DNA of 60,280 nt, filler included, from Jimgerdemannia flammicorona (Eukaryota): NCBI GenBank assembly GCA_003990765.1. It is 2 parts of 2 records of this genome, joined end to end, with 100 filler letters (N's around TTAATTAATTAA, not from the genome) between each part and the next. Parts side by side here need not be neighbours in the genome. Positions count along the whole stretch, not along the records: positions 30,207 to 60,280 come from RBNJ01000455.1; 1 more part is not named here. One strand, written 5' to 3'. The translations under genes and the position numbers were made by a program. Of this stretch, positions 4,176 through 58,655 are shown in pieces. The notes below the pieces were generated by a model. That model ran no database searches. It had not been told where the DNA came from and saw only the letters and a list, made by a program, of their open reading frames with translations. The stretch's first letter is position 1. Every line of letters starts with the position of its first letter.

Positions 4176-4333
<158 letters not shown>

Positions 4334-28229: not shown

Positions 28230-28315
28230 CTAGCACAAAAATGTAGTAATAACACCTATCTACCCCAATACCCCGACACCCCATTAAAAAAAAAAAAAAA
28301 AAAAAGCTTCACACG

Positions 28316-29986: not shown

Positions 29987-30106
29987 GCTCGTGAAAGCGC
30001 GTGGAGTCAATGGCAATCGCCAAATTTGGACGCGCAAATATGTTATTAATAAAACATGAGTTTACGGTTATGTGCAAATGTATAATTTGATTAACTTTTT
30101 TTTTTT

Positions 30107-30206
30107 NNNNNNNNNNNNNNNNNNNNNNNNNNNNNNNNNNNNNNNNNNNNTTAATTAATTAANNNNNNNNNNNNNNNNNNNNNNNNNNNNNNNNNNNNNN
30201 NNNNNN
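30107..30206. other. Assembly gap with artificial linker TTAATTAATTAA
   Basis: Runs of N flank a 12-nt all-frame stop linker at 30151-30162. Confidence 0.97.
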
Positions 30207-34318: not shown

Positions 34319-35525
34319 TGTAACGTGCCGGCTCAAATGGAGGCAAATTACAAGGTTGGGGGTTGATGTAGTTTGGCTTGAGCCCCCAGTTACTTTGTCA
34401 AAAAGCAACAAAATGTTCTAAGATTCCTGAGGTCCTTGGTGTTTAGTGGTATAATAGTCAAAGTTGGATTTCTGCGAGCAATTTCCTTATTGGGACAGTT
34501 CTCTGGGTGTAGCGGCGATTTGTGTGTGAATGGATTTCCTTCTTGGGTCAACTGGGAATGCCACAATTTTGTGAAGTGAGGCAATCTCCAAAAGTATGCG
34601 ATTTCTGGGTGTGGCAGTCTTGTGTAGCACGACGATCTTGATGCGTGACAGTCTGGCAATTTGGCGGTTCTCCTTATGCGATTTCTGCATGACGATCTTG
34701 GTACGACGATCTCTGTGTAGCGCGACGATCTCCAAAAGTATATGATTTCTGGCGGTAGCTCGATTTGGCTTACTGGGAATAAACGAATAACTCGGATGGA
34801 ATATGGCGGATAACTTAGAAGCGGCGGATGATGCGGATTCGGCTTCAACTGGGAATACTACTTGGACGATGCGAGTTCTTCCGAATCGGGCTTTTCTGGG
34901 AATACGATGGCATGGATTCTTCTGAATCGGCGGCTTCAACTGGGAAATGGCGGCGAAGTTCTTTCTTGAACCTAGGCAGCAAACTTCAGGCTTATCTGGC
35001 AAGCGAACCAAAACGTAGCGGACTTCTCTTGAAAACGGACTTGTTCTTTGTATCGGAAAGTGGACCAGAGTGGGAAAGGGGCAAAGCTCACAATCTCCTA
35101 GTAGTGGCTGTAGAGCAGGCGTTTCTCCTAAGTGTTGCAATCCAATTCCTTTAGGATCAAGTGGCTTTTGGCAGGTGTATCTCTCGAAGTGTAGTAGGCA
35201 GACTTGTCTTTTGCTTTGTATTTCAGAACTGAGGTTTATTCACTCTTATCTCTGGGGTATTTTATACATTGTGGTTGCTATCTTGGTTGCTATCTGGTTA
35301 ACTATAGAATGCTATTTATGGGGTGACATTCACTGTCAGAGTGACAGCCACTGTCAGGGTGACAGCCACTGTCAGGGTGATGGCCACTGTCAGGGTTTTT
35401 CCTTTCTTTAGCTATCTGGGTTATTTATACATTTTCTGCAGTAATGGTTGCTGGTTACTATGCTATGCTAATGTTCACATCACCTGGTTGGGTTTCGAGA
35501 TTGCTACGTTTTGTGGTTTGTCACA
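34319..35525 (-). repeat. 3' LTR of gypsy family B
   Basis: Near-identical to 43041-44269; contains internal 18-bp GACAGCCACTGTCAGGGT tandem repeats. Confidence 0.95.
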
Positions 35526-38500: not shown

Positions 38501-38916
38501 CAATTCTTCTCCAATGTTGGTGGAAGGCTTCACTGTCTCCTGGGTCGCAGAGGGGCCTTTCCTTTCTTCTGAGACCTTTTGCCATTTCCCAATAGGTTTA
38601 GTTCATAAACTTCCCTATGGGTTTGGTTGAGAAAAGGCACCAGATGTCCTATGATGGTTCCTTTCAGCAAGATGATGGTCTCCTAACTTTGGTTGGTTGC
38701 TCAGGAGTGTACTGGATTCATCTTGTCAGGGAATGTGTATCCCTCTATGTCCAGGTGTGGGATATCTTCCTTGGGTTCAAAGAAAAGGTTTCTGGGGTCA
38801 GGTGGTGCAAAGATTTCGAAGGTAGCTTGTTCTCCAGGCTCCAGGATGAGATTCTTGTGCAGTCTGACTGGTTGCTGGTATACTTATTGAGGAGCATTCT
38901 TCTTGAGGTGGTTGAC

Positions 38917-39345
38917 TTAAAGGAGATATACTTCCTTCTTGTCTGAGCTTCCGAATCCTTTGGCTTGCCTTGTTCCTTCAGTCAGTTCAGATACTTCCTG
39001 TAATTGTGGGGTCCTGACCTTTATGAAGACTGCTTGGGCAATCTTCTGTCCTCTAATAATTCGGTGCCATTCTGCACTACTGTTGTGTAAGATAACCTTG
39101 ATTTCGCCTGTATATCCTGGGTCAATGGTTCCTCCTTCTATGGTTATTCCTTGTCTGGTAAGTCCAGACCTTGAGGTCAATTGGATGTAAGCTCCTTGGG
39201 ATGGCTGCATGGCTAATCCAGTTCTGATCATGAAGGTTTTTCCAGGCTTGATAAATTCATCCTCCAGACTGTGAAGATCATATCCTATATCCTCTGGGTG
39301 GGCTTTGGTTAGGGGTTTGGCCTTGGGATGTAGCAGGGCATACTG
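38917..39345 (-). pseudogene. dUTPase domain within gypsy pol
   Basis: Motifs DIGYDLHS, SRSGL, GTIDPGYTGEI, KIAQAV and RQAKGFGSS. Confidence 0.92.
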
Positions 39346-42300
39346 GGCAATGTTCTTGCTAAGTTCAGGCTTTCCTAAGGCTGAAGCTCCACTAGCAGAG
39401 AGCCTCCAAGCTCTGAGATTGAGGTGTGGCCATCTGGTTCCAGTAGAGGGATCTTAGAGATAATTGATTCCTCTTCTTCCTGTAGGGTCTAGGGCTTCCA
39501 TGAAGTTGGTAGCATCTTCTGCCCATCCTTGGCAGGTTGCATGTCTGATGAGAGCTAGGATATCTTCTCCCAAATCATAGATCTTGAGGATTCTTCTTCC
39601 TGGCTTCTTGGTTCAGCTTTTTTGAATCTGGCCTCTGTTGTCTCCTCTCTTTAAAGTATGGACTGCAACATCATGACTAAGGTGAATCTTCTGATGTCTA
39701 CAGTCTTGGCAGTCAGGGTGTCTTCCATGGTTGTAATATCCCATTGCTTGGAAATGATGTTTCTGGTTATTGATCTCTTATTGTCTTGGGAATTGGTACC
39801 CATCTTGGTCATAGGTGGGTGGAAGGCAAATGGTCTTCCACTCTCCCCAAGACAACTGCTATCAGTGCCATTTACTGGACCAACAGGAGAGACAGAGACC
39901 CCAGAGACCAGACCCCCTAAACACACTTGCACAGTCAACTACCTTTCAAGAAGTTACCACCAAGCTACAAAGCTGATTCAGGGGGCACGGCTTCTTCATG
40001 TGTGGACATCTTCCTAGCTGAAAAGCTTTCTCTTGGTGAGTTTCTTTCTTGGGGATAATGGTGATAGTACTGGGTCCTTCTTCTGTATTCCAAGGGTCAT
40101 TGTCTTTGGGTGGTGTCCAGCAAGGGTCATCCTAGGGAATGAGTTCAGAGACCTCTTCTTCTTCAGGTGCTTCTTGTTCAGGAACTTCTTGGTCAGAAGT
40201 TTCTTCTTCCTCAGATGATTCTTGACCCCAAATTTCTTGTACTTCTGCAGCTTCAGTTGCAGGTGTTTCTGGAACATGTCGGCATTTCTTCTTCTTCCTT
40301 CTGCACTCTGGGCAGGCTGTGCCAGGCGATTTCCTTGTTCCCATGATCTTGGAAGAGTGCTCAGGATACTTGTGTCTCTTGAGGCAGATAGGGCATCCTT
40401 TGGCTTCTCCTGCAATGGCTCTGATGGTGATGGGGATAGTGTTCTTAGCCCATACATTGTCTTCTGGTCTGTCATCCACCAGGTTAATTCGGGGATTGAG
40501 TCTGGGATCATTTCCATCTTCAGATTCTTCCTCTTCTTCTGTGGTAGATTCTTCACTACTGGCATATTCTTCCTGAATAGTGACCTTCTTCTTCTTCTTT
40601 GATTGCTCATAGCTGGTCACCTTAACTCTATACTTCTTGTCTCGGTAATCAAACTTGAGTACTTATTGACCAATATCAACAACTGCATTCATTTCCTTCA
40701 TCCAGTTGGTGCCAAGAATCATGTCATAGGTGACAGCTTTGGTGATAACAGCTTTGAGGATGGAGAACTGAATGTGTCCAAGGGAGATAGTGATATTTCG
40801 TACTTCTCCAAGGGGTTGAGTTCAGGCTCCATCTGTTACTATGATGCTGAGGTTGGATGGTCCATCAATGGGGCATTGGAGGGTGTCCAGGAACCATTTA
40901 GCAATGACACAGACAGCTGCTCCTGTGTCTATGAGGATCTTTGCCTTTTGTCCTCCAATATCTCCATATAGGTAGGTGCTGACATATCTTTCAGCTGCTT
41001 GAACAGAGATGGGAACTGGTTCTTGCTGTGGGATTGGGACTCGGCCAGTGCTAGACCTGGTGGTTCTCAGTAATTTGTTTTGAACTCCAGCTGGTGTCAG
41101 TTGCAGGAACTGCAGGAGGGGAACTTCCATCTTGGCCTCTTGGATCTTCTGCCAGGCTTCATTATAGATATCTCTGGGCATGGTCTTTGGGGAGTATTTT
41201 TTCTTGGACTTTGGGGCAACAGATTCCTATTCTTCTTGTTCCATTTCTTCATCTTCTGGTGGCAGCTCATTTGTTTCTGGGACAAAAGGTGAGGGGGTTT
41301 GGGGAGATGTTTCTACTTGTTCTTCTTCATGTTCTTCATCTTCCTCTTGGATGGTTCTTCTGCTGACATTTCTGAATGGCCTTCCTACAGGTCTCTTCCT
41401 TTTCTCTGCTGGGTAAACTGTTTTCTGGGTGGTAACCTTGGTAGGATACAAGTCTAGGTCACTGTAGTCTTTGCTGTTGCTTGCTTCCTTGAAATCTTCA
41501 ACAGGATGGGCTTCAGTCTTCTTGTACTGAGTATCATTCCTTTGGTTTGGTGGTTCTCAGTCCCTTTGGTCACTTCTTTTGTTATCACATTCAGTGGCAT
41601 AGTGTCTGTATTGTCTACAGTAAAAGCATTAGACTTGGGCTCTGTCTCAGACAGGGTACCTTCTTTCTTCTTGCTGGTAATTCCTGTTATCTCTTGGTGG
41701 ATAACCTTGGCTTCTCTGTAGTGGATATCCTCTGTTATCTTGGTAGCCCCAATTTTCACATGTGGTAAGTTTTTCAATCTGTGCAACCAACTGGTCCAAT
41801 TTGGAGCTGAGGTCTTGAATTTCACTTCTGTCCTTTATTCCTTCCTTGGCTGGCCTTCTTTCTTCAGATATTTCTTATCCTTGAAGCAGTCCTTGTAGGG
41901 CTTTGACCAGGATATCTTCTTTATCTTCTTTCTTGTCATGGTCACTCCAGGTAGTTCCTTGTCTGACATCAAAGAATCCTTGGGCTGCATCTACTTGCTC
42001 TTCAGACCTTCTGATGCCTAGGGTGCGGACATGCTGGGCAATTTTTGGAGGAATTCCATTCATGAAGGTCATTGGACCTATGATGTCCTGGTTGGTGGCA
42101 TTGAACCCAGCAGTATGCATTCTCTTCTGGATTCTTGTGAAAAAGGCTCTGGGTGACTCTCTAAGATTCATCTTCATCTCCATGATGGATTCTTGAGCCT
42201 TGTGGTGGGTTTCATTTCCTGCATACTTTTCAATGAGCCAGTGGACCATGGCCACATATTCTAGCTCATAAGATAGTGCTGCTTGTATCTGTCTTGCTAA

Positions 42301-43040
42301 TTCTGAATCTGGATTGTTTGCTGTTCAATGGAAAATTCCTCTGGCTGGTTCTCTGAGCTGAGCCTTGTAGATGGCAATTTTTCTTTCATCTGAGAGATTC
42401 CTCAGGGCTGTGATTCCTTCAATTCCATCAAGGAATTCTCTGGAGTCTTCCTCTAGATATCCTGCAAAGATTGGCAATGAGGTGGTCATTTTATTGTCAC
42501 TTTCTTCTGATTCTGGTTCAGGTTCAGATTTTGATTCTGATTCACTTTCTGAGCTATCACTAGAGATGGGGGTGCTTGGGTATCTTGAGGATAGTGTTCT
42601 GGACCTTAGACAAGGTGGAATAAGCCTAGGTATTCTTGTAGGAGCTACTTCTCACTCTGCAAGAGGTTGTGGTAAAGGTTCTATTGGGGAGATTGGTGGG
42701 ACTGATATGGGGTGTCTGGCTGTAAGATCTTGGGCTTGTGTAATAAGATCTTCTAGTTCTTGTACAAGTTCTTCAAAATCTCCAACAGGGCCACCTGTGT
42801 TGTCTAGTTGATCTGGTTGGGAATTTTGGGCTGTACTTCCTTCTGGTTGAGATCCTTCTGATGCTGGGTAGTTGGCAAGTCTTGATGTGATTACTTCTCT
42901 TCTTGTTCAAATGCTGGTGATGACTAGTTCTCTTGTAGTGGCAGAGATTAGTATTGTATCAAATGTATCCAGTTTGACTGTGAGTTCTTGTGAGCTGAAA
43001 AGTCACATCGATTTGAAATCTTCCCAGTTGAGCCCCCAAA

Positions 43041-44269
43041 TGTAATGTGCCAGCTTAAATGGAGGCAAATTACAAGGTTGGGGATTGATGTAGTTTGGCT
43101 TGAGCCCCCAGTTACTTTGTCAAAAAGCAACAAAATGTTCTAAGATTCCTGAGGTCCTTGGTGTTTAGTGGTATAATAGTCAAAGCTGGATTTCTGTAAG
43201 AAATTTCCTTATTGGGACGGTTCTCTGGGTGTAGCAGCGATTTGTGTGTAAATGGATTTCCTTCTTGGGTCAACTGGGAATGCCACAATTTTGTGTAGTG
43301 AGGCAATCTCCAAAAGTATGTGATTTCTGGGTGTGGCAGTCTTGTGTAGCACGACGATCTTGATGTGTGACGGTCTGGCAATTTGGTGGTTCTCCTTATG
43401 CGATTTCTGCGTGACGATCTTGGTACAATGATCTCTATGTAGCGCAACGATCTCCAAAAGTATACGATTTCTGGCAGTAGCTCGATTTGGCTTACTGGGA
43501 ATAAACGAATAACTCGAATGGCGTGGATTCAGCTTCAACTGGGAATATGGCAGATAACTTAAAAGCAGCGGATGATGCGGATTCGGCTTCAACTGGGAAT
43601 ACTACTCGGACGACGCGAGTTCTTCCGAATTGGGCTTTTCTGGGAATACGATGGCGCGGATTCTTCTGAATCAGCGGCTTCAACTGGGAAACGGCGGCGA
43701 AGTTCTTTCTTGAACCTAGGCGGCAAACTTCAGGCTTATCTGGCAAGCGAACCAAAACGTAGCAGACTTCTCTTGAAAACGGACTCGTTCTTTGTATCGG
43801 AAAGTGGACCGGAGTGGGAAAGGGGCAAAGCTCACAATCTCTTAGTAGTGGCTGTAGAGCAGGCGTTTCTCCTAAGTGTTGCAATCCAATTCCTTTAGGA
43901 TCAAGTGGCTTTTGGCAGGCGTATCTCTCGAAGTGTAGTAGGCAGACTTGTCTTTTGCTTTGTATTTCGGAACTGAGGTTTATTCACTCTTGTCTCTGGG
44001 GTATTTTATACATTGTGGTTGCTATCTTGGTTGCTATCTGGTTAACTATAGAATGCTATTTATGGGGTGACATTCACTGTCAGGGTGACAGCCACTGTTA
44101 GGGTGACAGTCACTGTCAGGGTGACAGCCACTGTCAGGGGTTTTCCTTTCTTTAGCTATCTGGGTTATTTATACATTTTCCGCAGTAATGGTTGCTGGTT
44201 ACTATGCTATGCTAATGTTCACGTCACCTGGTTGGGTTTCGAGATTGCTACGTTTTGTGGTTTGTCACA
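43041..44269 (-). repeat. 5' LTR of gypsy family B
   Basis: Near-identical to 34319-35525 with one extra ~22-bp repeat unit; adjacent to the PBS. Confidence 0.95.
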
Positions 44270-45628
44270 ATATGTATAATAAATTTTATAAATATTAATA
44301 CTATTACTATAATATCCAAGTTCATTTGTGACAATAGTATATCAGCATAGTAAAGCCTTAAGTTATATGTACAATTAACTCTTCTAAATATTTTAAAAAT
44401 TGTCTAAATAATTAAGCTGAACAATTTCTAGCTAATTGAAAAGGGGGGATTGAGACCTCTGCGTCTCTGCTATCTTACTCATCATTCCAACTACATAAAC
44501 TAGGGCTGCCATACGCCATGTTTTTGAACATCTTACATGGCCTTACCATTGTAACATCGCAGCAGGTATAGTATTCGGCCTGCAGACTCCTCGATGGTTG
44601 TGCGTGGGTGCACTGCCGTTTTCAGATGATCTGCTGCACTGCTCCGGGATGCACTGTCCCGGCGCGAGAGAGCACGTGAGACTTGGTTTACGACACATTC
44701 ACAGCTTCCAAAACCAACTTTGAATAATCCGTGCGCGCGTAGTTCCATTATACAGGAACACCCACGACGGCTTCCGCTTGTGTATTCGAGGCGTTAGAGA
44801 AATGAGGTTTGCGAGTGACGTGTGCACTGCGGGTGAGAGGAGCCTGAATATCATCACCATTAAGTGGTTCCCGTCAAGTCCACTTTGAGACTGGGACGTC
44901 ACTGTCGAAACTGGTGAAAAATGTCGATCGAGGCGTATGGGACATAGTTTACGACGCGCTTGAGTCAGAGGCGCAAGAGAACAGGAAGTTGCTTGGCGAG
45001 TTAACCACCGTAAAGGGCGGCTCTGAAGCAGAGGTCCCGATTGTTTCCTACGACGTGGTCGGCATATTCGAATTGGAAGAGCATGACAGCAAGACAGAAT
45101 GCATATTCTTCACTCTTCATTCCATCTGAAGTAAAGCATTCCATTAATGTGATCGCCACAAACACAAAGTATCCGACATGAATGACTCCTATATAGCTGA
45201 CCATCAGGCGCAAGGTACTATTTGCGAAAGGATAATAATAAATATAGAGGAAAGTATTTTGAGTACTGCCATAGCATAAGCGGATTTAATTCACCGGAAT
45301 TATAATATGCATTATATGGAGATAGTAGGGATAATAGAAACGGGACGCGTAGTTATATTCAATGCATTTGTTGTCACCCTATATTTAGAAAATCGGGTGC
45401 AAGGATGCTTCCCAAAACTAGAGAATTTATGAATGTGAGATTCATAAGTTATGCATGAGTATGTGTTCAAATTATTGATTTCGCTCGCGCAACAAATAGA
45501 TTTGGGAAGCAAAAAATAAAATAAAATAAAATATTTGGAGGGTTTATTGCAAATCGCCGAAGTGTATTACCAATTCGGCGGGTTTGTTCACATCAATATC
45601 TACACTGCACTCACATTTTGCACTCTCT

Positions 45629-46667
45629 TTACAAATACTTCTTCACATAATCCTCGCTTACACTCCACAATCACTCCGTCGCCATTGGATCTCTCGCCTG
45701 TTCTGCCAGCGGGCGCGACACGCTCACATCTTCCGGATACGCTCCGCCTTTGTCCTTGAGCTCGGGTACTGAAATCACCTAAACTTGTGTCGCGGTACCT
45801 TGCGGCACCGTCTTCCAGAAAGCGGCAAAATTGCCCTTGGCATCTACCCACCCTTTCCTTTGCCTCTCCTCCATGTCGATGTGGTGCTGAAGCGGCGTCG
45901 GGATGTCACCGTGGTAGACACTGAAGGCTTCAACACCCATGGAAGCATAGAGCTTATTAAGTTAGTAGGCGAAGAGAATGTTGGAAGTTTTGGATTGGCC
46001 GTACGATTCCCATTTTTCGTAGGAGTGCGTGGTGAAATTTGGATCGGAGACGTTGATACCCTCTGTAGCTGGTGAAACGAATGGAATTAGGGGTAGAAGG
46101 TAGAAGGGGTGAGAAGGAATGATACTTTCAATGTCAATCTTCGACAATGAAAGTAAGGCGGAGAGAGAGAAAACCCATATAAACCAAATATCACTCACCT
46201 AGATTGTGAGCAACGACCACGCGGGTCGGAGCATTGGCTACAACGTTGTCAATCAGGAGTCAAGTGAGGAGGTAGTTAGTGGGCGACATGGTTCGTGCTG
46301 AACTGGGTCTCAAAACCGCCAACGGTCTTGCAAAATGGAGTGGCCATGGTTCCTGGAGACGATGGAAGCTCGGCAACAAAAGTCGATGAAAAGCGTAGTG
46401 ATAACAAAAGAAATTCTCAGCTTACCAGCATTGAGTATTAGCCCGTCCAGCTGCACGCCGGATGCCCTGACGTCTTCAGCCAAGACCTTGACAATGGCGA
46501 AGCTAGACAAGTCCAATTTGTAGTAGGTGATTTCGGCGGAGGGAGTTTCCACCTTGATTTTTGCTCGGCGGCGGTGAGGTCGCGGGCGCCGAAAACAATT
46601 TTGGCACCGTGCTTGACCAAGACACGTACGCTTTCTTCTCCTGTAAAATGCAAAATTTCGGTGTGAA

Positions 46668-46698
<31 letters not shown>

Positions 46699-46818
46699 CG
46701 GATATTGCAAAAGAGAGCATAACACACAAGACCAGAGGTGGCACCTGTAATAAGGAACGTTTTTCCATGTCATCACGGGATCGGCGGTGGGGTGATTGGC
46801 GAAAAGGTGGAACGGCAC
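45629..46818 (-). pseudogene. Short-chain dehydrogenase/reductase (retinol DH/WWOX-like) pseudogene with introns
   Basis: Motifs GKTFLITGATSGLG, KLDLSS, LILNAG, DGFETQF.TNH, YGQSKTSNILF and LWSVSEDYV. Several in-frame stops and frameshifts. Confidence 0.88.
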
Positions 46819-47368
46819 GTCTTATGTTGGAATACACGTGATACAATGTATGATGTCACCCAGAAATACGTAACCTCTTACTGCTCGCATACGCAAGCTC
46901 TTGCACAAAAATACTGCGCCATTGCTTCATTGGTCAGAACTGGAAGGTTGATTACGTCACCCACGGCAAATGGCATAGAGATTGCCTGCATGCCGTTATT
47001 TGCCTCCAAATTTAATTAAAATAAAATACAAAAATGGGAAATTTTAGCATCAACTGGCCGACGGCGCCATTGTATTTGTAGGCATCAGCTTCCAACGACA
47101 CATCGTCCAGCAACGAAACATGTACCGTTTGTCGCAAATCCGACCTTAGGTATTTTATTTCTAGGCGTTTGATTTGGCGAAGTGCACAGATGCGCTGATT
47201 TTACACGAAATGGCTTGCCATACAGCGCCATTCGCAACCAAACCTCGTCAACATCTCGCAGCCTTGGAAGGCTAAAGCACGGCGCTACTCGGGTGTTAAG
47301 CCGACCTTTCGCAAACCTGTTCGATTCGTCCAAAATACTGCACATTAAATGGCTTTTTATACAGCGGC

Positions 47369-49845: not shown

Positions 49846-52675
49846 TCATAAAATCACACAGCATATTTTCCTAGGTTTGACATCGCCATCGTGGGCCTGG
49901 TGATTAACAGGACTTCCCAGAGATGGTTCGTTGCCCGTGTTGGCTGCTCCCCGCCTCTGCTTTTCCTGGTCACGGTACTGGTCCTGTTGCTTAACTGGGC
50001 CCAATTTTTCCGGAGATGCGTCATTATCCATGTTTTTGGGTCCCGGCGGGATTAGTTGATTATCGTCCAGGCGCTGAGCTGGGGCCACATTTCCCAAAGA
50101 TGTCTCGGTAATCGTGTTGTCTGATTCCTTAGCTGGGGACCGATTTCCGAAAGATGGCTCGGTAATCGTGTTGCCTGAGCTTGGTTTCACTTCCTTAGCT
50201 GAAGCCCGATTTTCGAAAGATGTCTCGGTAATCGTGTTGCCTGAGCTCGGCTTTAGTTCCTTTGTTGCTGAGGCCTGATTTCCGAAAGATGTCTCGGTAA
50301 TCGTGTTGTCTGAGCTCGGCTTTAGTTCCTTTGATGCTGAGGCCTGATTTCCGAAAGATGTCTCGGTAATCGTGTTGCCTGAGCTCGGGTTTGCCTCCGT
50401 AACTGGGACACGATTTACGGATGATTTCTCGGTATTCGTGTTGCTCGACTTCGGATAGATCGTTGGCTCACGGTGCTCGTGATGGTTGTTAAGGGGTGCC
50501 GGATTTCCCACAGACGTCCCAGGATCCCTGTTGGCTGATACCGGAGACGTCGCAGTGCCTGGATGCTCCAATTCCAATGCCTTCCCCGCCAAACCGTTCA
50601 GCGCCTTTGTATGCGGGTGATCTTTCCCGAAAGTCAACTCCAATATTTCCAGAGCCCGCTTGTGCAGTTTGTCGGCCTCGTCGCATTTGCCCTGGTTTTT
50701 GTAGACTTGGGCCAGTTCGATCTGTGACATCGCAGTGTCCGGATGCTCAGATCCTAACACCTTCTCCCGGATTGTCAGGGCCCGTTGATGCAGCTTCTCA
50801 GCTTTAGTGAAATCGTTCTGACTGTAGTAAACTCCAGCGAGGTCATACAATGACATCGCGGTGTCCGGGTGGTCGGGGCCCCTCTTCTTCTCGAAGACCT
50901 CCAGCGCTCGTTTGTGATGCTTTTTAGCCTTGCCGTGCTCACCCCGCCTCATATATAGCTTGCCCAGATGATTCATTGAAGTAGCGGTGTCCGGGCCATT
51001 TATTCCAAACTCTATTTCGCGAATGCCCAGCGCCTCGTTTTGTACCCGCATCGCTTCGTCGTAGTTGCCGAGGCCTTCGTAAATCACGGCGAGGTGGTAC
51101 AGTGATATCGCGGTATCCGGGTGATCTTGCCGGTTAACCATGTTTGAAACCTCAAGTGAGAGAAGTGCTAGTTCCTCTGCTTCCGAATACGCTCCGTTAC
51201 CCCGAAGATAATCAACTGCTCGGATGAGTAGGTTGTGGAGGTCTTTGGACTTGAGCGGTTTCCGGCTGAGGTCAAGCCATGTGACAAAATGTTGTATGTG
51301 GGAAAGATACGTTTCCATGATCACTCGGGTCGGAGGATCGTATGGATTTAACGAATTAAATGATTTCGTCTCGTTGTTAAGGGCGGTGGCAATATTTTTA
51401 GCCCATTGCAGTTTCTTTTTGTCTTCCATCGAATCGTAGATGGCCTTCTGGACCAATCGGTCAATTGTCAGGAAATAGCGCCGTGGGTCCTCTTTGGAGT
51501 CTTTGACTTCCTTTTTCTGTCTGGTCACGAAGGAATAATTGGCCAGCAAGGCAAAGGCTTTTTGTACGGATTCCAACGGCTGGTCCTCGTCCTGCTTGTT
51601 TGCTGACAAAGAAGCGCGAAGTCCAAGAATAGAATATTGTTTTTCGAAAAGGCGCATAGGAATGTTATCTGGTTGGAGAAAGACGCAGGCTTCAAGGATC
51701 TGCGCCGCTGCGGGATTTTGTTTTTTAATGCGTTCGAGGGAGACCTCCCAGACTGTAGCGAGCGAGTGTTTGTTCAGACCAATGCCGTTTTTGTCGTCAT
51801 TTCGGAACAGACTTTCCTGCTTCGTCATCAACTTGTCCGCATAATCTCGAAGGGTGATATCCGAGGTCTCAATGTATGCTCGTGCGAGATGGAGTGCGAA
51901 CGGCATGCAATCGAGCTGGGTGATGATCTCTTTTGCAATATTTAATTCTTCGTTAACCGAATCCATTGTCGAACCGTCGAGCAACATAGCGATTGCTTCG
52001 TCATGTTTCATCTTGTCGACTTTGATCACTTTTGCCACCTCAGAAGGGATGGGTTCACGCGTGGTTAGGATGATGTGGCCACCGATGCGGGGCAAATACT
52101 TGAACACCTCCGTGTCTGTGTCGTAATTGACGTTGTCCAGAAGGAGCAACCATCCTTCATTTTTCTCAAGCCAATCGCGAACCCCTTCGATGATCTTCTC
52201 TCCTGAGGTTTTCTCCGCTGCGATGTCCTCGCCGGGGCTCAGATTGATGGCCAGTTTGTGAAACGAATCAACCGTCGTACGCCAGTCGCCAACCTCCAGC
52301 CAGAAAGCGTATTTGTATGATTGGAAGTGGATGTAGCAGTAATGAAGCATCAACTGAGTCTTGCCAATGCCTCCCATTCCTTTGAGCGCCAAAATTCCGC
52401 ATGGGCCTGGCAAGGGGCTTTTGTCCAGCTCGGTCTTCATATTTTCCAGGATTTGTGGGCGTTCGACGAATGCCAAGTTCCGAGCAGGGACGCCGTAGAA
52501 TTTATTTTTGACAGTTACTTTGACTTTGATGTGTTGAGAGGAGTAGATGATTGCGACGTTTTAATATTATACAGAGCGGTATTGAAGAGTTTTAGAGACC
52601 GTGAAACCGAGGAGGCAATCTCATGTAGAACTTACGATTGCGAGAAGACTTTCTTTTTCTCTTGTTGGTGTCCAT
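49846..52675 (-). CDS. NB-ARC-TPR NLR-like protein with repeat tail and C-terminal CaaX box; predicted exons 52675-52636 and ~52523-49846 (~905 aa)
   Basis: Walker A GMGGIGKT, Walker B WLLLLDNV, IILTTRE, GLPL-like CMPFAL, 4-5 HPDTA TPRs, and end KPRKICCVIL*. An in-frame stop upstream of VPARN requires splicing; ATG 52675 plus a GTAAGT donor at 52635 and an AAG acceptor give the correct phase. Confidence 0.88.
50095..50450 (-). repeat. Coding ~69-bp tandem repeat (PSSGNTITETSFGNQASASKELK)x5-6
   Basis: GATGTCTCGGTAATCGTGTTGCCTGAGCTCGG units on the + strand. Confidence 0.9.
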
Positions 52676-55121
52676 GACGTTTGTAGTCTTCTATCAAAGT
52701 TCGCAGACGAGGAGCTCGTTCGCAAGTTTTAGTCTCGGTATTTTGTTACTGTACACTCAATTGACCTCCGCACCGCAGGCCAGATTTCGCGCGTCTCCAA
52801 ATCGGCGTTTTAAAACTCAGCACTGACTGCGGGCTCTTCCTTGCCTTAAAGTGGTACTCGGTGGTTGCACCGGAACCGGAATGGCGCAGTTACATCATGG
52901 GACATTATCGCTAAAGCCAAGATTTCTATGGTGCCGACCAGCCGTTGTCAATTTTGGGTATGATTGATGGCTTTAGCCCACACTCCGGCGGGACGTACGT
53001 TTCTATTTCATTTTCTCCAGTTTTAATTGATCGTGCGTCCCTAAGCATATCGCAACCGCCGAACGTGAAAAGCGCGTCAATATTACCGGCACTTGTCGAA
53101 TCCCTCTTCCGTTCCCGTTGTCATTCCAAACTTTTTTGCAAACGTGATGTTGAGCACGAACCATGATACAAATTTGACAATTTTTTTTTTATGCACACAA
53201 ACATCTGCTCCGGATTCTACCATTTAATATCTCTGTACGACTGACATGTATTTTACTCCGAGAAGAAACACGTCGTGGAAAGGGCCTCGGCCTGCTTTGT
53301 CGACGTAAACAATTTGACATTATTGCAGTGATGCAAACGGACTGATACCCAACGTGATGTCGGTCGAAGAAATAATAAAAAAAAAAGTGATATAACAAAT
53401 AAGTGCGTTCAAATCCAACCGATATTATCTTCCAATGAATAAGATGCTTTTGCATTGAACACACTCAAATCACGAAATACTGGTCTAAATATTAACTAAT
53501 AATTCACTAGATAACTTATGGCGGTTTACATGACCGGTTTGTTCAAGTAGTAATTATGTGAAAGATTTTTTGACGTCTCTAATCAAGATGGACGATAGGG
53601 TGTGGCTGAGTTTGACTGCCATATTTATATATACATCTTTACCGTTTTGTGGGGGTCAACGTGCATCCTCTGTATCGACAAAGTAAAAGGGCCCTATTTT
53701 CTCACTTGGTTTCCGCCTAGCGGCAATAGCACTATGGATCTTCTTGCTGGCGGCTCCACTCTCGAGACCATGGACGGTTAATAAAAGAATCTCCTAAAAA
53801 AAAAAAAATAGCTGCATATTGATCGTGTGCGACGATCGATCCATGTCATTTTGTGACACGAAATTGCCAGTGCATGCCGTATTATGATCCGGAATTTACC
53901 GGTTTGGTTCTAACCCGAAATCGTCATTTCGGGGGGGTTCGAGTCAATTTGAACGCCACCGTCCATCACGTTGTCTTCTTTACGCCACAGGAACATAGTT
54001 CAGTAATTGGAGTAATTGCAGTTCTTAATAGTGCAGCATTACTAGTAAAATCCCTAAGACCAGCGTCATGATAGAACCTCTGGCAACCTCTTACGCACTT
54101 GTTATCTCTTATTCTTTCTGAGTGGATACCGAACTGGTGTTTATTGCTACGGGTATAAACCCATTATACTGTTTGCTCTATCACTTCTCTGTTCAAGTGT
54201 TGTGCGTCCGATCAGTTACTTTGATAAATCTGCGCTCGGACTTCTGCTTTTGCATGGATATAGTCCTAAAATACCTGTTGCTGAGAATGGTCGCCATCTC
54301 TGAATATATTTGAACAATTCGTACCAACCTCTGTGGCTTACTACGCGGAAGCAAACGCAGACAATGCGAGGTGAATTGCATGATTGCAAACGTCGATATT
54401 ATTTACACCTTCACAAGTGTTAAGAAACCCATAACAATTTACCTCATTGAGAAGTCCATGTTTAATATAGCAAAACTGCAAAGGCAAACCATCCCAAACG
54501 GCTCGCGAATCTCCCTATTTTACCTCTTTACTCAATTTTCGACAATACCGATAAGACGCTTGGCGATTCCACGTGGTATTAGCTATATAAATGAATGCTT
54601 TTTGTGTATGCTGTAGCCAATACCGTCAATGGGCACACCGTTTGCTCCCATACTTGTAAACGTAACACAGGTAATGTGACAGGGAAATTTTTAAAATGGT
54701 ACCAATCCAGATAGGCCATAAGGTATATACTTTAATAAACTTCACCTCATATATGAAGTTATCCGCGGGCCATTACGAACACACGACTATTATAACCATT
54801 AAATGAATGGGCTTCGATGCAAAGATTACGAATTTCAGCAAGATTCTCGTATATTGTATACAATTATTTATTACGAGAGGACTGGCTAGCGCAAAATGGT
54901 AGATTTGTGCGCGGCGAATTACTGTGTAACGGAATAAGAGTGTGTCAAAATACCGGGAACAGTAACGAACCGACACACAAGGCGTTCCGAAATGGAAGAA
55001 ATTCATGTGTGCCAGACTTGTAAGCGAGTCTGGTGACAACGGCGTCCATACGAATACCGTCAGGATTTGGATGTGACAGAACTTAGCACAATCGTCTTCT
55101 CTCCAGCGTCCAACAAGCAAG

Positions 55122-55730
55122 ATGATGCTCTACAAGCTGAAAGTGCTCGGAGCGGCTGGTTCGGGCAAGGAGGACCTGGCCCTCATAATGATGGCGAACA
55201 TCTTTGACGAATCCTACAATGCAAACACCGAGGATTCGTATCGAAGGCAAGTGGTCATCGACAAACGACCGTGCGTGGTGGAAGTTATGGACATAAGCGC
55301 CGCAGAGGAGTACACTGCTCCGAGTGACCAAGATATCAGGGACGGTGACGGATTTCTCATCCTGTATTCCGTCGCCGATCGCTCCACCTTCGAGCAGGTT
55401 GAACGTTACTATGAGTATATAATTCGCGTCAGAGACGAAACCGTCCCGGTGATGCTGGTCGGTAACAACTGTGATAGAGTGGCGGAGCGCGAAGTGGCGA
55501 GAGAGGAAGGGATTGACATGGCCCGCCGAATCGGAAGTGATTTCATCGAGGCCTCCTACAGGGGTCGCCTCAACGTTGAGAGGTCCCTCTACACCGTTGT
55601 GCGAAGGATTAGAAAACATCGGGATGGCGATAACAAAGACGGTAACAAAGGCAGTAACAAAGGCGGTAACAAAGGCGAGAAAATGACGAGTGCGCGCGGC
55701 GCCGGGTGCAAGATGTGCAATGTACAATAA
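55122..55730 (+). CDS. Divergent intronless Ras-family protein (fungal Ras2/Mucor Ras3-like) with degenerate G-boxes, 202 aa
   Basis: Reads MMLYKL..LG..G.GK, EDSYRRQVVID..PCV.EV.D, EEYTA..DQ.IRDGDGF, VPVMLVGN.CD, EREV.REEG, NVERS.YTVVR; ends CKMCNVQ. Confidence 0.9.
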   Translation: MMLYKLKVLGAAGSGKEDLALIMMANIFDESYNANTEDSYRRQVVIDKRPCVVEVMDISAAEEYTAPSDQDIRDGDGFLILYSVADRSTFEQVERYYEYIIRVRDETVPVMLVGNNCDRVAEREVAREEGIDMARRIGSDFIEASYRGRLNVERSLYTVVRRIRKHRDGDNKDGNKGSNKGGNKGEKMTSARGAGCKMCNVQ

Positions 55731-56843
55731 TTTTGTAGGGGAAGGGAAATAGGTTGCCGTCTATGTATTTAATCATTAAATCGTAGAAATGGCATGTTAA
55801 TTTTCGTCACTTGTCTCTTTCGTGTTCGTAAACTTTTCACCGTCGTTTTAGTTCAATAATGGGACAGGTCAGGTTTAGTTAGAACTATTTCCAATATTTA
55901 TTGTTTGCATGTTGTATTGCATATTTTGCCGTTAAGGTCGCTTGAGAACACTCCTTTAAACACATTTACACCATGTGTTCCTGTTCTCCTTAATGCGATT
56001 TTTTGCTGTTGACTTGCTTGCGCAAAATCATTCATGGGGCTTTTAATAAACTTATTCAAAATACGTATTCATCGGATGTATTAATGCATTAAGGCAAAGA
56101 TAAATCATGACACAATACAACATGCATCAACGCCATTTTCCCATCTGCCATGTACAATCGAGCGCCTTCCTTTCTTTAACTGTCAATTCTGATATCCGTT
56201 CCTTGAAATCGAGCTAATATCTGGCCATCGAACCATTTGTATTTTTGACGCGTTTTATTGTCTATCATGACAACCAAAAGTATTATCAGGAATTTATTCA
56301 AGTCACCAAGAGTGATACAGTTGTCAATGATAAGACTAATATATAGTTCATCTGACCTTTAGAGTCAAAATAGATTAAATTGTAAAGTATAGTACCTGTG
56401 TGTGAACCAACTAACTATATTGCAACTAGTAACTTAGTGGTTTATGCTTGCATGTAGACGCTCAATATTTACATCATCAACACGTCATCAATAATTTGAA
56501 CGCGTAACTTGAGTATCAATAAAAACAATCCCCATTCTTCCAGGATTACTCCAGTAATTCCACTACAATTATAAATTATATTAAATTACAATCCTACAAT
56601 ATATTAATTAAATATATTCTAAAATTAAATATTGAAAATAAATATAATTAAATAATATATCTAATTAATTTAGATTTACAATGTAATGATTTGTTACATA
56701 GCAATAAGCCACTAGAAATTATGATGGAATTTCCAATGGAACTTATAATGGAATTTCCAATATAGTAGTTATATATCATATATAGTATAACTGTATATAG
56801 CTATATTCAGTATATCATATTTAGCAATAGTTCTAAATCTACA

Positions 56844-58621
56844 ATGGCCACAGGGGGATGACCTTTCTCCTGGGACATGGAGTACCACAAGGGGACCCCT
56901 TGTCACCCATATTGTATGCCCTTTCTCTAGAGCCTCTACTGGACAGAATTTGGCATCAGATTGGGGGTTTGGACATTTTAGAGATTAATTGGAAGGTGGG
57001 GCCTTTGCTGATGATATGGTGGTCAGGCTGGGCTCCTTGGTAGATGTGGGGGAGTTACAGAGGTCTGTGGAATGGTATGAGAGGAGTTCTGATGCTAAAC
57101 TAAACTGGTACAAATGTGAGACTCTGGTGCTGGGTGCTGGAATTATGGGTGGTAATGTCATTGGGACAGTGGTACTGGCTGGTGAACCAGTGTATTATTT
57201 GGGAATCTACTTCTTGGTGTTCAGATCTCATCTTTCCTGAGTATAGTGGGACTGACAACTTCTGGAGTAGGAAAATGTTCTGCTGTGGTGGGGAGGTTGG
57301 CATATATTACTAGCCGGAAGGGTGATGGTGCAGAATGTGTATTGGATGTTGAAGCTGTAATATGTGGGATATCATTTGAATTTCCCAACCTGGGTGATCA
57401 AGGGGCTGTTGAAGATAGCGAGGACATGGATCTGGGGAGGGCGGCAGAGTCAAGTGGGTTGGGAGGTGCTTACACTGCCCTTGGAAAGAGGTGGGCTGGG
57501 CTTAGTGGACTTTACTAAGCGGCTTCAGTGTTTGAGAGCTTAGTGGTTGTGAAGGGCGAGTGAGCTTAGGGGTCGAGAGTGGGTGCCACTTATATAGAGG
57601 TTGTGGGAGGTTCAGTACTCCCCATGTGGTGGCTCAGGTGATCTACTCATGATGGTGGCCATGAATGGGAGCAGGAGGATACAGTTTATGGGCTTCTGGT
57701 AGGGGGTGGTGGATGGCACTAAGAAAATTGGACTTCGGTGGTGAGGTGATGAAGCCGAGGAGAATTGGGGACTACAGATGTGGCGGTGGGACAGGCTTCT
57801 ACTGGGTGGTGTCCCAGTGGAGAACTTTCAGCTTGGCGAGGGTCTGGAGTGTCTGCGAGGCCTAGGTGGAGACCTGTGGCCCAAAGCCTGACAGAGGGTT
57901 GGAATTAGTGAGGAGTGGGATTGGAATGGACTCTGGCTTTGGAGCAAAAGGGTGAGGCAGTGGCTGCCCCCCAAGTTCTGGGTGGTGTGGTGGTATGTCC
58001 TATGGCAGAATGTGATATTGAACTATCAGTCTGGACACTTGGTGGCCAGTGGAGTATTCAAGTGTGAGGATTGTTTTGGTATTGGTCAGGAGGGAGGAGT
58101 GGTACAAATGCCTGAACATTGGCTTGGCGAGTGTGAAGTTTTGGAGGAGTTTTAGAGATATATTATAGACCAGGTAGGACTAGGTACCTTGGAGGGAAAG
58201 GAAGGGGGGAGATGGGGAGAGCTCCGCCAGCAGCTGGTGGGTGGGGTTGGAGATGAATGGCTGACCCTTGGTTGGGCTTTGGCTATGTGGGTTGGGTTAG
58301 CTGAGCATTGAGTTTATGTCTTCAAGGAAGGGTCATGGATTGGGGTTGGGGACAAGGTGGCATGTTGGGAATGGTTGCTATTGGACATTTTGAATAGCTG
58401 GTGGTGAGGTTGGGGGCTGGGTGGGGGGTACCATAGGGGCTTGGTGCAGTATATCTCCCAGAAGAGTGGTGGGAGGATTCGAGTAGTGGGTAACTAGGTG
58501 GTGCTTGGGTAGGAGAAGGTTGAGGGAGGAGGATTGGGTTCATGGGACATTGGTTGAGAGTAGGGATGACATTGTATTGTTAGAATTATAGACATTGGTA
58601 ATAAAGGGCAGTCCAAGGGAC

Positions 58622-58653
<32 letters not shown>
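56844..58653 (+). mobile_element. 5'-truncated Tx1/L1-like LINE (RT C-half to poly(A)) with ~15-bp TSD
   Basis: GVPQGDPLSP, GAFADDMVV, CEDC...EHWLGEC and poly(A) at 58625-58653. TSD core GTTCTAAATCTA at 56830-56841 and 58655-58666. Confidence 0.92.

Positions 58654-58655
<2 letters not shown>

Follow-up and report, generated by a model that had tools for sequence, protein, structure and literature searches.

Few signalling switches are as conserved as the classical Ras proteins, and most known derivatives with an unchanged fold and lipid anchor but no GTP hydrolysis come from the Rho and Ras relatives of animals. The Endogonales are an old lineage of fungi that live in symbiosis with plants, and their genomes are very large and rich in repeats. 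In one of these fungi, the ectomycorrhizal Jimgerdemannia flammicorona, a stretch of 60,280 nucleotides (assembly GCA_003990765.1; hereafter the window) holds an open reading frame (ORF) that resembles Ras and has every nucleotide-binding motif altered. Is it a duplicate on its way to being lost, a Ras protein fixed in one state, a trap for the Ras machinery, or something that selection has kept for another use? We lean, without great confidence, towards the last of these, namely a selectively maintained, lineage-specific, non-cycling and lipid-anchored Ras2 derivative of the Endogonales.

An intact reading frame of the Ras2 subgroup

The locus had been described from its sequence as an intact, intronless Ras paralog, and our analysis bears this out: the frame is single and intron-free with no internal stop or frame break over its 202 codons, it matches the Pfam Ras family (PF00071; E 4.2e-33, 114.7 bits against an applied cut-off of 21.6 bits, with residues 5-164 aligned to profile positions 1-161 of 162), and it lacks the catalytic and Mg2+ residues. 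One canonical member scores 188.1 bits against the same profile. The best match among solved structures is KRas (E 4.2e-44), which aligns over residues 2-183 of both query and chain with one 1-residue gap, and it is this similarity to solved Ras structures that fixes the fold of the ORF. The canonical order of strands and helices also appears in an AlphaFold2 model of moderate confidence (mean pLDDT 66, 12-sequence alignment).

The nearest canonical proteins are Mucoromycota Ras2, at no more than 59% identity, and against the Mucoromycota Ras2 consensus the ORF is 59% identical with a collinear G domain and a single 1-residue gap. In the tree, a branch with 100/100 support parts the Ras2 sequences from four Ras1-type rows; the ORF falls on the Ras2 side, a placement obtained a second time. 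On these alignments and trees the ORF is a member of the Ras family, Ras2 subgroup.

Like canonical Mucoromycota Ras2 proteins (Phascolomyces, Lichtheimia, Mucor), the ORF begins with MMLYKL and closes with a basic tail and a CaaX box; unlike them, it has all five G motifs altered, a roughly 10-fold longer branch, a CaaX box ending in Q rather than L, and a tail that holds one more Cys and an expanded in-frame repeat (Table 1). The 12-nt repeats encode Lys-containing G/D-x-N-K units, and the last residues read CKMCNVQ, with the CNVQ that had been reported as kept lying directly 5′ of the stop. This is the kind of terminus that prenylated Ras proteins have, and lipidation is predicted from it. 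CaaX boxes that end in Q are of the farnesyl type. The same final Q occurs in all four full-length members of the paralog group described below (the ORF, P0062, P0312 and P0314), and P0083 has no CaaX box at its end.

Table 1. Positions of the ORF, its motifs and neighbouring features, counted along the window
Feature	Position	Strand	Description
NB-ARC + TPR (NLR-type) gene	49846..52560	-	head-to-head with the Ras ORF, ~2.6 kb apart
RNA-covered stretch	55110..55333	+	one 225-nt contig (X1), 100% identity, depth 2.4, soil metatranscriptome
Ras2-type ORF	55122..55730	+	ATG start; 202 codons, then TAA stop
G1 / P-loop, codons 10-17	55149..55172	+	GDGGVGKT > GAAGSGKE; G10, G15, K16 kept; G12A, T17E
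Switch I, codons 32-40	55215..55241	+	YDPTIEDSY > YNANTEDSY; T35 replaced by N; E37-D38-S39-Y40 kept
G3, codons 57-61	55290..55304	+	DTAGQ > DISAA; D57 kept; G60A, Q61A
G4, codons 115-118	55464..55475	+	NKCD > NNCD; Ras K117 equivalent is N; N116, D119 equivalents kept
G5, codons 145-147	55554..55562	+	SAK > SYR
In-frame 12-nt tandem repeats, hypervariable region	55626..55685	+	4 overlapping 24-nt copies, spacing 12 (family D1)
Lipid-anchor motif (putative)	55707..55727	+	Cys196, then CaaX C199-N-V-Q abutting the stop; from ORF translation
LINE-like retroelement fragment, 5′-truncated	56837..58654	+	weak RVT_1, E 7.5e-4; poly(A) of ~33 nt at its end

All five nucleotide-binding motifs are altered

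Every change listed by the sequence-only reading in G1, switch I, G3, G4 and G5 is present in the ORF, and the Ras2 consensus used there agrees with that of the real Mucoromycota Ras2 proteins that we aligned. The P-loop departs from the Walker A pattern GxxxxGK[S/T] at its last position, where Glu follows the retained Lys in place of Ser/Thr. Of the features that a cycling GTPase carries, Thr35 of switch I is Asn, DxxG and its catalytic Gln have become DISAA with Ala for both Gly60 and Gln61, [N/T]KxD has become NNCD with the Asn and Asp present and the Lys gone, and SA[K/L] has become SYR. A GTPase fold with degenerate G motifs would, as judged from the sequence, place the ORF among the pseudoGTPases.

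The residues that are lost serve GTP hydrolysis (G12, Q61), Mg2+ coordination and γ-phosphate sensing (T17, T35), switch II movement (G60) and the tight hold on the nucleotide (K117, A146). From Ras biochemistry we take E17, N35, A60, N117 and Y146 to be changes that abolish the coordination of Mg2+ and lower the affinity for nucleotide; with Glu17 and Asn35, the product probably binds nucleotide weakly, without Mg2+, or not at all. Some of the changes counted below at nucleotide-contact sites are mild, D11A being the mammalian state and A59S and K147R conservative.

Selection versus neutral decay

If the ORF were a dying duplicate or a processed pseudogene, its frame would be open by chance and the loss of its motifs would be neutral decay. 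Its branch is indeed very long (1.74 against a median of 0.17), it sits in repeat-rich, gene-poor surroundings with an AT-rich block on one side and a LINE fragment on the other, and its nucleotide-contact sites, a list that we picked from Ras structures, have changed no more slowly than the variable ones (13/22 and 23/40, respectively). The remaining conserved sites, however, have changed at about half the rate of the variable ones (32/104 against 23/40, p = 0.004), and compared with these 104 sites the nucleotide-contact sites are substituted in excess (Fisher p = 0.015). That excess is real but modest. The proposal that changes concentrate at the catalytic sites stands as to enrichment, which is only about twofold at nucleotide sites; the changes are not confined to these sites, as 68 of the 166 G-domain positions depart from the Ras2 consensus.

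The frame itself also speaks against decay. In neutral simulations carried to 41% amino-acid divergence, a stop-free frame survived in 52-187 of 4000 (1.3-4.7%), with point substitutions alone; indels would push this share lower. GC at codon positions 1/2/3 is 0.56/0.39/0.64 and mirrors the neighbouring gene, Leu/Ser codon choice is strongly coding-like (all ten Leu codons are CTC or CTG), and the CpG content that had been noted as kept is confirmed at an observed/expected ratio of 1.25, whereas the AT-rich block at 47.5-49.8 kb has a ratio of 0.11. Start codon, CaaX box and stop are all in place, and annotated relatives with the same derived states occur in a second genus. Neutral decay is disfavoured because the frame is intact, the codon bias is of the coding type and the scaffold changes more slowly, in agreement with the earlier impression that the changes are unlike random decay.

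On the side of decay there is also the record of the ORF, which is annotated in none of the sources examined. The exact protein was not found in a collection of 15 billion proteins, in which the neighbouring NB-ARC + TPR gene is identical to an annotated Jimgerdemannia flammicorona protein, a match that assigns the window to this species. RNA evidence is minimal: the single contig of Table 1 comes from one run with 0.19 of the sampled words, with a 1.9-kb stretch examined and its uncovered parts uninformative, and may be a sign of ORF transcription, DNA carry-over being possible. Taking both sides together, we regard a dying duplicate as decidedly unlikely.

As to the origin by retrocopying that the sequence-only reading had proposed, in-frame insertions near codons 31/32 and 61/62 in the Ras2 gene models of other species (P0013, P0017, P0063) lead us to infer that canonical Ras2 has introns at about these places. 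No poly(A) tract was seen by eye in the 3′ flank (55731-56836), and the repeat search found no repeat flanking the ORF. The absence of a poly(A) remnant is expected for an old retrocopy. LINE fragments nearby do carry poly(A) tails.

Similarly degenerate Ras2 paralogs in the Endogonales

By its derived residues and tree placement the ORF belongs to a group of similarly degenerate Endogonales paralogs. Its relatives with the same style of degeneration are P0062 (J. flammicorona), P0083 and P0312 (Endogone sp., on the same 14-kb contig), P0314 and P0113. Membership in such a group is a point that the sequence-only reading had missed. When the ORF is compared with P0062, P0083, P0312 and P0314, none of the five sequences has G12, V29, T35, Q61, K117 or K147, and every one of them retains G10, G15, K16, N116, D119 and S145; T20A, I36T, E76D, I84V, F96Y and K104R are additional derived states common to the group. 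Position 17 is Glu in the ORF and I, T, T and T in the other four, the three Endogone-type members keeping both T17 and D57.

Identity among the ORF, P0062 and the Endogone-type sequences is only 41-48%, each being nearer to the canonical consensus than to the others. In a careful tree the degenerate group forms one branch (bootstrap 91, SH-aLRT 88), which joins long branches and is not strongly supported; two other long-branched degenerate copies, from Linnemannia and Lasiosphaeria, were placed with the Ras2 of their own lineages. Among annotated proteins, RUS30224.1 (J. flammicorona) and RUS18900.1 and RUS18901.1 (Endogone sp. FLAS-F59071) resemble the ORF in the replacement of G12, T35, Q61, K117 and K147, in the retention of K16, N116, D119 and S145, in several additional derived residues, in the final Q where the protein ends in a CaaX box, and in their position in one tree group. 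They differ from it in being annotated, in sharing only 41-46% identity with it, and at positions 17 and 57, where the Endogone copies have T17 and D57 and RUS30224.1 has I17 and V57, against E17 in the ORF.

A metagenome scan with the ORF protein gave no relatives among 92 pattern matches. In a scan with an alignment (A3), the best 80 of 292 relatives were all at most 59% identical to the ORF and none of these 80 had the Endogonales pattern of degeneration; two of them (L034, L045) have NNSD and SAR, with DTAGQ and switch I unchanged.

The clade-wide retention of K16, N116, D119 and S145 suggests that the ancestral form still bound guanine nucleotide, and because these residues are kept, the case for lost hydrolysis and switching is stronger than that for a complete loss of nucleotide binding.

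A possible GTP-bound form or GEF trap

Rnd1-3 and RhoH keep their Mg2+- and nucleotide-binding residues and are GTP-loaded. If the ORF product were of this kind, it would bind GTP without hydrolysing it and act as a permanently ‘on’ Ras2 whose signal is set by abundance. The replacement of G12 and Q61 (both Ala in the ORF) alongside the nucleotide-binding residues kept in all five clade members fits such a model, as do T17 and D57 in the three Endogone-type members. According to PMC13236570, Rnd and RhoH proteins are constitutively active through like changes at G12 and in G3/switch II, and Rnd1-3 and RhoH share with the ORF the substituted G12 and Q61/switch II equivalents, abolished hydrolysis (predicted for the ORF) and a retained lipid anchor. 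However, they belong to the Rho family and the ORF to the Ras family, and the ORF has in addition lost T17, T35, K117 and A146, carrying Glu17, Asn35, Ala60, Asn117 and Tyr146. Its Mg2+- and nucleotide-binding residues are thus not intact, and the loss of T35 leaves switch I unable to close over the γ-phosphate, which makes an ‘on’ conformation doubtful. We consider a constitutively GTP-bound emitter unlikely.

The sequence-only reading had instead proposed a dominant negative that, like Ras S17N, sequesters a Cdc25-type exchange factor (GEF). The position-17 hydroxyl is gone and G60 is Ala, and changes of either kind turn Ras into a dominant negative; the anchor would, moreover, put the protein where the GEF acts. 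However, switch II has L67P, R68S and W71D at positions that are invariant in 35/35 canonical Ras2 proteins and that we take, from Ras-SOS structures, to be part of the Cdc25/SOS docking surface and necessary for the GEF to dock, and the variation of position 17 within the clade leaves no common trap design. Both points weaken the proposal, and we hold a GEF trap to be very unlikely.

A further parallel is microsporidian ArlEM, a small-GTPase paralog restricted to a single lineage related to the fungi and the subject of a class i pseudoGTPase proposal. According to PMC13393502, ArlEM has, like the ORF, mutated canonical motifs, predicted lipid anchors and an open frame; it is an Arf-family protein, more divergent and with deletions, whereas the ORF is of the Ras family with an undisturbed scaffold and K16, N116 and D119 kept. 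Our literature search found no paper joining the Endogonales with a small GTPase, and within the fungal Ras pseudoGTPase literature, judged by title, none was found on Endogonales or Mucoromycota Ras.

Genomic surroundings and the neighbouring NLR-type gene

A tblastn search with canonical Ras2 found no second Ras copy in the window; the sole other match (E 1e-5) is the P-loop of the NLR-type gene and not Ras. The LINE-like fragment sits 1.1 kb downstream of the ORF and is separate from the gene. A 21-nt inverted repeat (55128-55148 / 57820-57840) was set aside as a chance match, its second arm lying inside the LINE fragment without a Ras-like frame. An antisense ORF (55083-55760, minus strand, 225 codons from stop to stop) matches no Pfam family and is a by-product of codon bias, being open because the sense frame lacks TTA, CTA and TCA and the codons are aligned. 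Two small upstream ORFs (54773-55006, minus strand; 54817-55023, plus strand) have no family match in Pfam.

The head-to-head neighbour allows a further model, in which the ORF product serves as a Ras-like bait guarded by the prenylated NB-ARC-TPR protein next to it, and modification of the bait by a Ras-directed effector of an antagonist or endobacterium would trigger the receptor. The sequence-only reading had likewise thought of a decoy, there in connection with bacterial toxins that act on switch I; our results gave no evidence for or against such a link. The neighbour has no effector domain at its N-terminus, and its last residues, KPRKICCVIL, form a CaaX-like tail, so that both products could share one membrane. 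NLR and Ras-like families are, according to PMC12581995, expanding together in ectomycorrhizal truffles (Tuberaceae), and the same paper cites Rajashekar et al. 2009 for a Ras-type expansion in Laccaria bicolor. These fungi resemble J. flammicorona in having extra Ras-type paralogs in transposon-rich ectomycorrhizal genomes (PMC12581995); they are Ascomycota and Basidiomycota, and the likeness is one of family expansion. Against the bait model, adjacency is the sole link between the two genes; on reading both translations we noticed no shared motif. We regard an NLR-linked decoy as a very long shot, and we give just as little credence to a combined reading in which the ORF comes from a long-standing family of Ras2 derivatives in the Endogonales, farnesylated and unable to hydrolyse GTP, and serves as a membrane bait paired with the NB-ARC-TPR receptor. 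If this combined reading were true, tampering with Ras by an effector of a competitor or endobacterium would be detected by means of a dedicated decoy, and an early-diverging fungus would have a guard/decoy arrangement built on a small GTPase.

A probable non-cycling Ras2 derivative

For the reading that we favour, a maintained and non-cycling Ras2 derivative, the ORF has kept the whole G-domain scaffold, the protein start, a tail that contains Lys, and a CaaX box of the farnesyl type that is preceded by an additional Cys. Its product would be unable to cycle as a switch and would form, on membranes, a constitutive Ras2-like binding module that is independent of nucleotide state. Most likely, partners that recognise the β2 edge (E37-D38-S39-Y40-R41) or the well-kept α3-α5 face would be occupied or bridged by it, and Ras2 signalling would be modulated in place of a GTP-dependent signal being passed on. 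Whether as competitor or as adaptor, this mode of action is our inference from the residues that are kept and lost.

The ORF is a real-looking gene overlooked by current annotation. Should it prove to be unexpressed, what is left would be a duplicate in an uncommonly good state of preservation. If the Endogonales family is indeed maintained, it would be a natural example of a Ras switch turned into a non-cycling module, and the Mucoromycota would join the ectomycorrhizal Ascomycota and Basidiomycota in which an expansion of Ras-like and NLR families has been reported.

Structure and family of the Ras ORF

The degenerate Ras2-type ORF (Ras ORF) matches the Pfam Ras profile (PF00071) from residue 5 to 164 on profile positions 1–161 of 162 (E = 4.2e-33), scoring 114.7 bits as against 188.1 bits for a canonical Ras2 relative, and together with its unbroken frame this upholds the claim of the sequence-only reading that the ORF is an intact member of the Ras family. 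Searching solved structures returned 782 distinct sequences at E ≤ 0.001, headed by KRas (E = 4.2e-44), which aligns 2–183 on 2–183 with one single-residue gap per side; the best-scoring KRas chain reads NNCD at G4 and is thus a K117N variant. The AlphaFold2 model (shallow alignment of 12 sequences; mean pLDDT 66, pTM 0.65) has the strand and helix order of the usual G-domain, with pLDDT below 50 at residues 29–37, 60–64, 118–122 and 171–202, corresponding to the switch loops, the G4 loop and the tail. The exact protein is absent from a 15-billion-sequence protein collection and gave no self-hit in the homology search; the Ras ORF is unannotated. The 4.3-kb piece carrying it is single-copy within the window.

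Features of the window
Feature	Position	Strand	Remarks
Diverged LINE-like pieces	4177–4314; 17718–19317	−	reverse orientation
Four consecutive long open frames	28253–34288	+	frame 1, DUF6345 (E = 1.6e-39); frame 2, TPR_10/TPR_12 repeats
Degraded Ty3/gypsy-like retroelement	about 34400–47000	−	separate frames: aspartic protease, RT, RNase H, integrase, dUTPase domain (E = 9.1e-26)
NB-ARC + TPR gene	49846–52560	−	904-codon frame beside the Ras ORF
Ras ORF	55122–55730	+	one unbroken frame, 202 codons; ATG ATG start, TAA stop
LINE-like fragment	56837–58654	+	5′-truncated; FADD reverse-transcriptase motif; poly(A) tail of ~33 nt

Motif changes and lipid-anchor motif

In an alignment with actual Ras2 proteins of Mucoromycota, Mortierellomycota and Glomeromycota, the Ras ORF departs from their consensus in G1 (GDGGVGKT to GAAGSGKE), switch I (YDPTIEDSY to YNANTEDSY), G3 (DTAGQ to DISAA), G4 (NKCD to NNCD) and G5 (SAK to SYR). 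The consensus used in the sequence-only reading is the one that these proteins give, and all five of its motif changes are present. As read directly from the sequence, the ORF lacks G12, Q61, T17, T35, G60, K117 and A146. In established Ras biochemistry, hydrolysis depends on G12 and Q61, Mg2+ coordination and gamma-phosphate sensing on T17 and T35, switch II movement on G60, and a tight hold on the nucleotide on K117 and A146; a protein without them would be unable to cycle.

The C-terminus reads GCKMCNVQ, that is, the CaaX box already seen to be kept (CNVQ, X = Q) with a second Cys three residues upstream, and it follows a Lys-containing stretch made by in-frame 12-nt repeats. Farnesylation is the rule for CaaX boxes with X = Q and geranylgeranylation for those with X = L, such as the canonical Ras2 box CLIL; a Cys upstream of the box is a typical palmitoylation site.

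Probable constraint on the frame

In a neutral simulation, random point substitutions were placed on the ORF's own DNA until 41% of residues differed, and 52, 77 and 187 of 4000 runs kept a stop-free frame at transition/transversion biases of 1, 2 and 4, respectively; because only substitutions were simulated, indels would lower this fraction further. The G domain of the Ras ORF has only one 1-residue gap.

For a site-by-site comparison we used 35 canonical Ras2 proteins from the homology and profile search matches, omitting models with obvious insertions or deletions (e.g. P0005, P0013, P0017, P0027 and P0063). Across 166 G-domain positions the Ras ORF departs from their consensus at 68, with change at 23/40 variable sites, at 32/104 conserved sites outside the nucleotide pocket (Fisher p = 0.004 versus variable sites) and at 13/22 conserved nucleotide-contact sites (p = 0.015 versus other conserved sites), the contact list being our own, drawn up from Ras structures. 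Some of the 13, such as D11A, A59S and K147R, are mild. The scaffold is still constrained, and the pocket is evolving about as freely as variable positions. The view that changes concentrate at catalytic sites in an unbroken frame is supported in part: contact sites show an excess, of about twofold, and conserved positions outside the pocket have changed as well.

The GC fractions of codon positions 1/2/3 (0.56/0.39/0.64) come close to those of the neighbouring gene (0.55/0.38/0.58). All ten Leu codons are CTC or CTG, and TTA, CTA and TCA do not occur (expected probability 0.0017 from the neighbour's usage). CpG is not depleted (observed/expected 1.25), as had been noted from sequence, and start, CaaX box and stop are all present. 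The open frame, the uneven change, the coding-like composition and the intact protein ends argue that the Ras ORF is not decaying. An antisense frame at 55083–55760 (−), in register with the sense codons, runs for 225 codons without a stop because the sense frame lacks TTA, CTA and TCA; it has no family match.

Degenerate relatives in Endogonales

An exhaustive search of representative proteins returned 20,640 matches at E ≤ 0.001, with no single-domain match closer than 59%. Other degenerate Ras2-type proteins are P0062 of J. flammicorona (RUS30224.1), P0083 and P0312 of Endogone sp. FLAS-F59071 (RUS18900.1 and RUS18901.1, on the same 14,070-bp contig), and P0113 and P0314, from the homology and profile searches. 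Within the nucleotide set, the Ras ORF and four relatives have all replaced G12, V29, T35, Q61, K117 and K147 (always by Arg), and all keep G10, G15, K16, N116, D119 and S145. The Ras ORF shares the derived states T20A, I36T, E76D, I84V, F96Y and K104R with at least two other members, and in the four members that end in a CaaX box the last residue is always Q (CNVQ, CSIQ, CRLQ, CNLQ).

A careful maximum-likelihood tree (32 rows picked from ~410 proteins) places the five on one branch inside the Ras2 group, with a bootstrap of 91 and an SH-aLRT of 88, which is not strong; long branches meet there, and Ras2 and Ras1-type rows split at 100/100. The terminal branch of the Ras ORF is 1.74 long versus a median of 0.17. 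A quick tree of 53 rows gave the same grouping (SH-aLRT 80). As a control for long-branch attraction, two further degenerate proteins on long branches in the careful tree, Linnemannia P0052 (0.89) and Lasiosphaeria P0061 (1.01), stayed with the canonical Ras2 of their own lineages. The copies may nonetheless have arisen independently and changed convergently, as identities among the Ras ORF, P0062 and the Endogone-type proteins (41–48%) lie below those of each to the canonical consensus (45–59%). Whether by one origin or several, two genera retain a protein of this kind.

Degenerate Ras2-type paralogs also arose separately in other fungi: G3 reads DMSSH or DYSCG in Linnemannia elongata P0052/P0191, and G4 reads NNCE in Lasiosphaeria hispida P0061. 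Entrophospora sp. P0042 and P0085 join repeated Ras-like domains to kinase-like sequence, and P0043 (417 aa) carries two degenerate Ras domains in tandem.

Expression and possible retrocopy origin

In the search of public sequencing runs, the one match was a soil metatranscriptome, which contains 0.19 of the words sampled. Over 54500–56400 it yielded one 225-nt contig, identical to 55110–55333, at a depth of 2.4. This is a weak hint of expression, and the contig may come from DNA in the RNA library.

The Ras ORF is intron-free. In other Mucoromycota, introns probably interrupt canonical Ras2 genes near codons 31/32 and 61/62, sites deduced only from in-frame insertions of 15–28 residues in some models (P0013, P0017, P0063). 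Reading 1.1 kb downstream of the ORF revealed no poly(A) tract, and the repeat search found no repeat flanking it; LINE copies with poly(A) tails in the window show that retroposition machinery existed. A canonical Ras2 of J. flammicorona is absent under its own name from the homology and profile matches and may be hidden in a 90%-identity cluster named for another species. The observation of the sequence-only reading is confirmed, and its interpretation is partly supported, for an intact paralog altered in a way unlike random decay; the retrocopy origin and the decoy role are conjectural.

Genomic surroundings

P0192, an annotated J. flammicorona NB-ARC-TPR protein, is contained letter for letter in the 904-codon frame (P0192 1–203 = frame 41–243; 204–760 = 348–904), which places the window in this ectomycorrhizal Endogonales species or one that cannot be told from it here. 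The annotated model excises 104 codons that in the window form open, in-frame sequence. The gene has no N-terminal effector domain and carries a 69-nt coding repeat (4.8 copies, 50125–50444) near its 3′ end. Its C-terminal KPRKICCVIL combines a basic stretch with a CaaX-like box; a Cxxx end occurs in only 5/120 relatives. Its few Mucoromycota matches are from Calcarisporiella (42–44% identity); the other nearest relatives are bacterial, at ~25–31%, among them Ktedonobacteria, actinomycetes and myxobacteria, and often bear the name ‘FxSxx-COOH system tetratricopeptide repeat protein’. The last two of the four consecutive frames match no family; together the four could represent a second gene of the STAND/TPR type, either fragmented or interrupted by introns. 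A 216-nt unit occurs twice at 32919–33350.

The surroundings of the Ras ORF are rich in repeats. An identical 18-nt tandem unit at 35321–35396 and 44065–44139, ~8.7 kb apart, may mark the two LTRs of the Ty3/gypsy-like element. Blocks of 24–33% GC alternate with blocks of 43–54% GC. The AT-rich block at 47.5–49.8 kb, the sole one measured, has a GC of 0.25 and a CpG observed/expected of 0.11 with TpA undepleted, a pattern consistent with methylated or repeat DNA decaying by C-to-T change; further AT-rich blocks lie at 3–17, 21–24 and 59–60 kb. The C-rich blocks with strong GC skew are at least partly explained by the reverse LINE-like pieces, one of which finishes in a poly(T) run of 108 nt (4178–4285).

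Proposed mode of action

As K16, N116, D119 and S145 are kept clade-wide, the ancestral member is suggested to have still bound guanine nucleotide, as do Rnd and RhoH (PMC13236570). Differing from these, the Ras ORF (E17, N35) and P0062 (I17, V57) have probably gone further, to nucleotide binding that is weak, Mg2+-free or absent. The retained lipid-anchor motif would place the protein at membranes, and partner surfaces would be offered by its E37-D38-S39-Y40-R41 edge, which is kept, and by the C-terminal half, which is well conserved. On these grounds our preferred reading is that it acts constitutively in Ras2 signalling, as a competitor or an adaptor. We rate the GEF trap raised in the sequence-only reading lower, because switch II positions 67, 68 and 71, invariant in 35/35 canonical Ras2 proteins, are P, S and D here.

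By title, the papers found on pseudoGTPases, Ras and fungi do not deal with Endogonales or Mucoromycota Ras, and the literature search found no paper joining Endogonales with a small GTPase; gene-family tables of Endogonales genome papers may already list such paralogs. PMC12581995 ranks NLR and Ras-like families with the most strongly expanded ones of ectomycorrhizal Tuberaceae and refers to Rajashekar et al. 2009 for an expansion of RAS GTPases in Laccaria bicolor, and PMC13393502 describes ArlEM of Microsporidia as a lineage-specific, lipid-anchored putative pseudoGTPase. The known kinds that cover the Ras ORF are atypical or pseudo-GTPases and the Ras-family expansion of ectomycorrhizal fungi. 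Its most fitting description is an unannotated representative of a group of putatively non-cycling, CaaX-bearing Ras2 derivatives in Endogonales.
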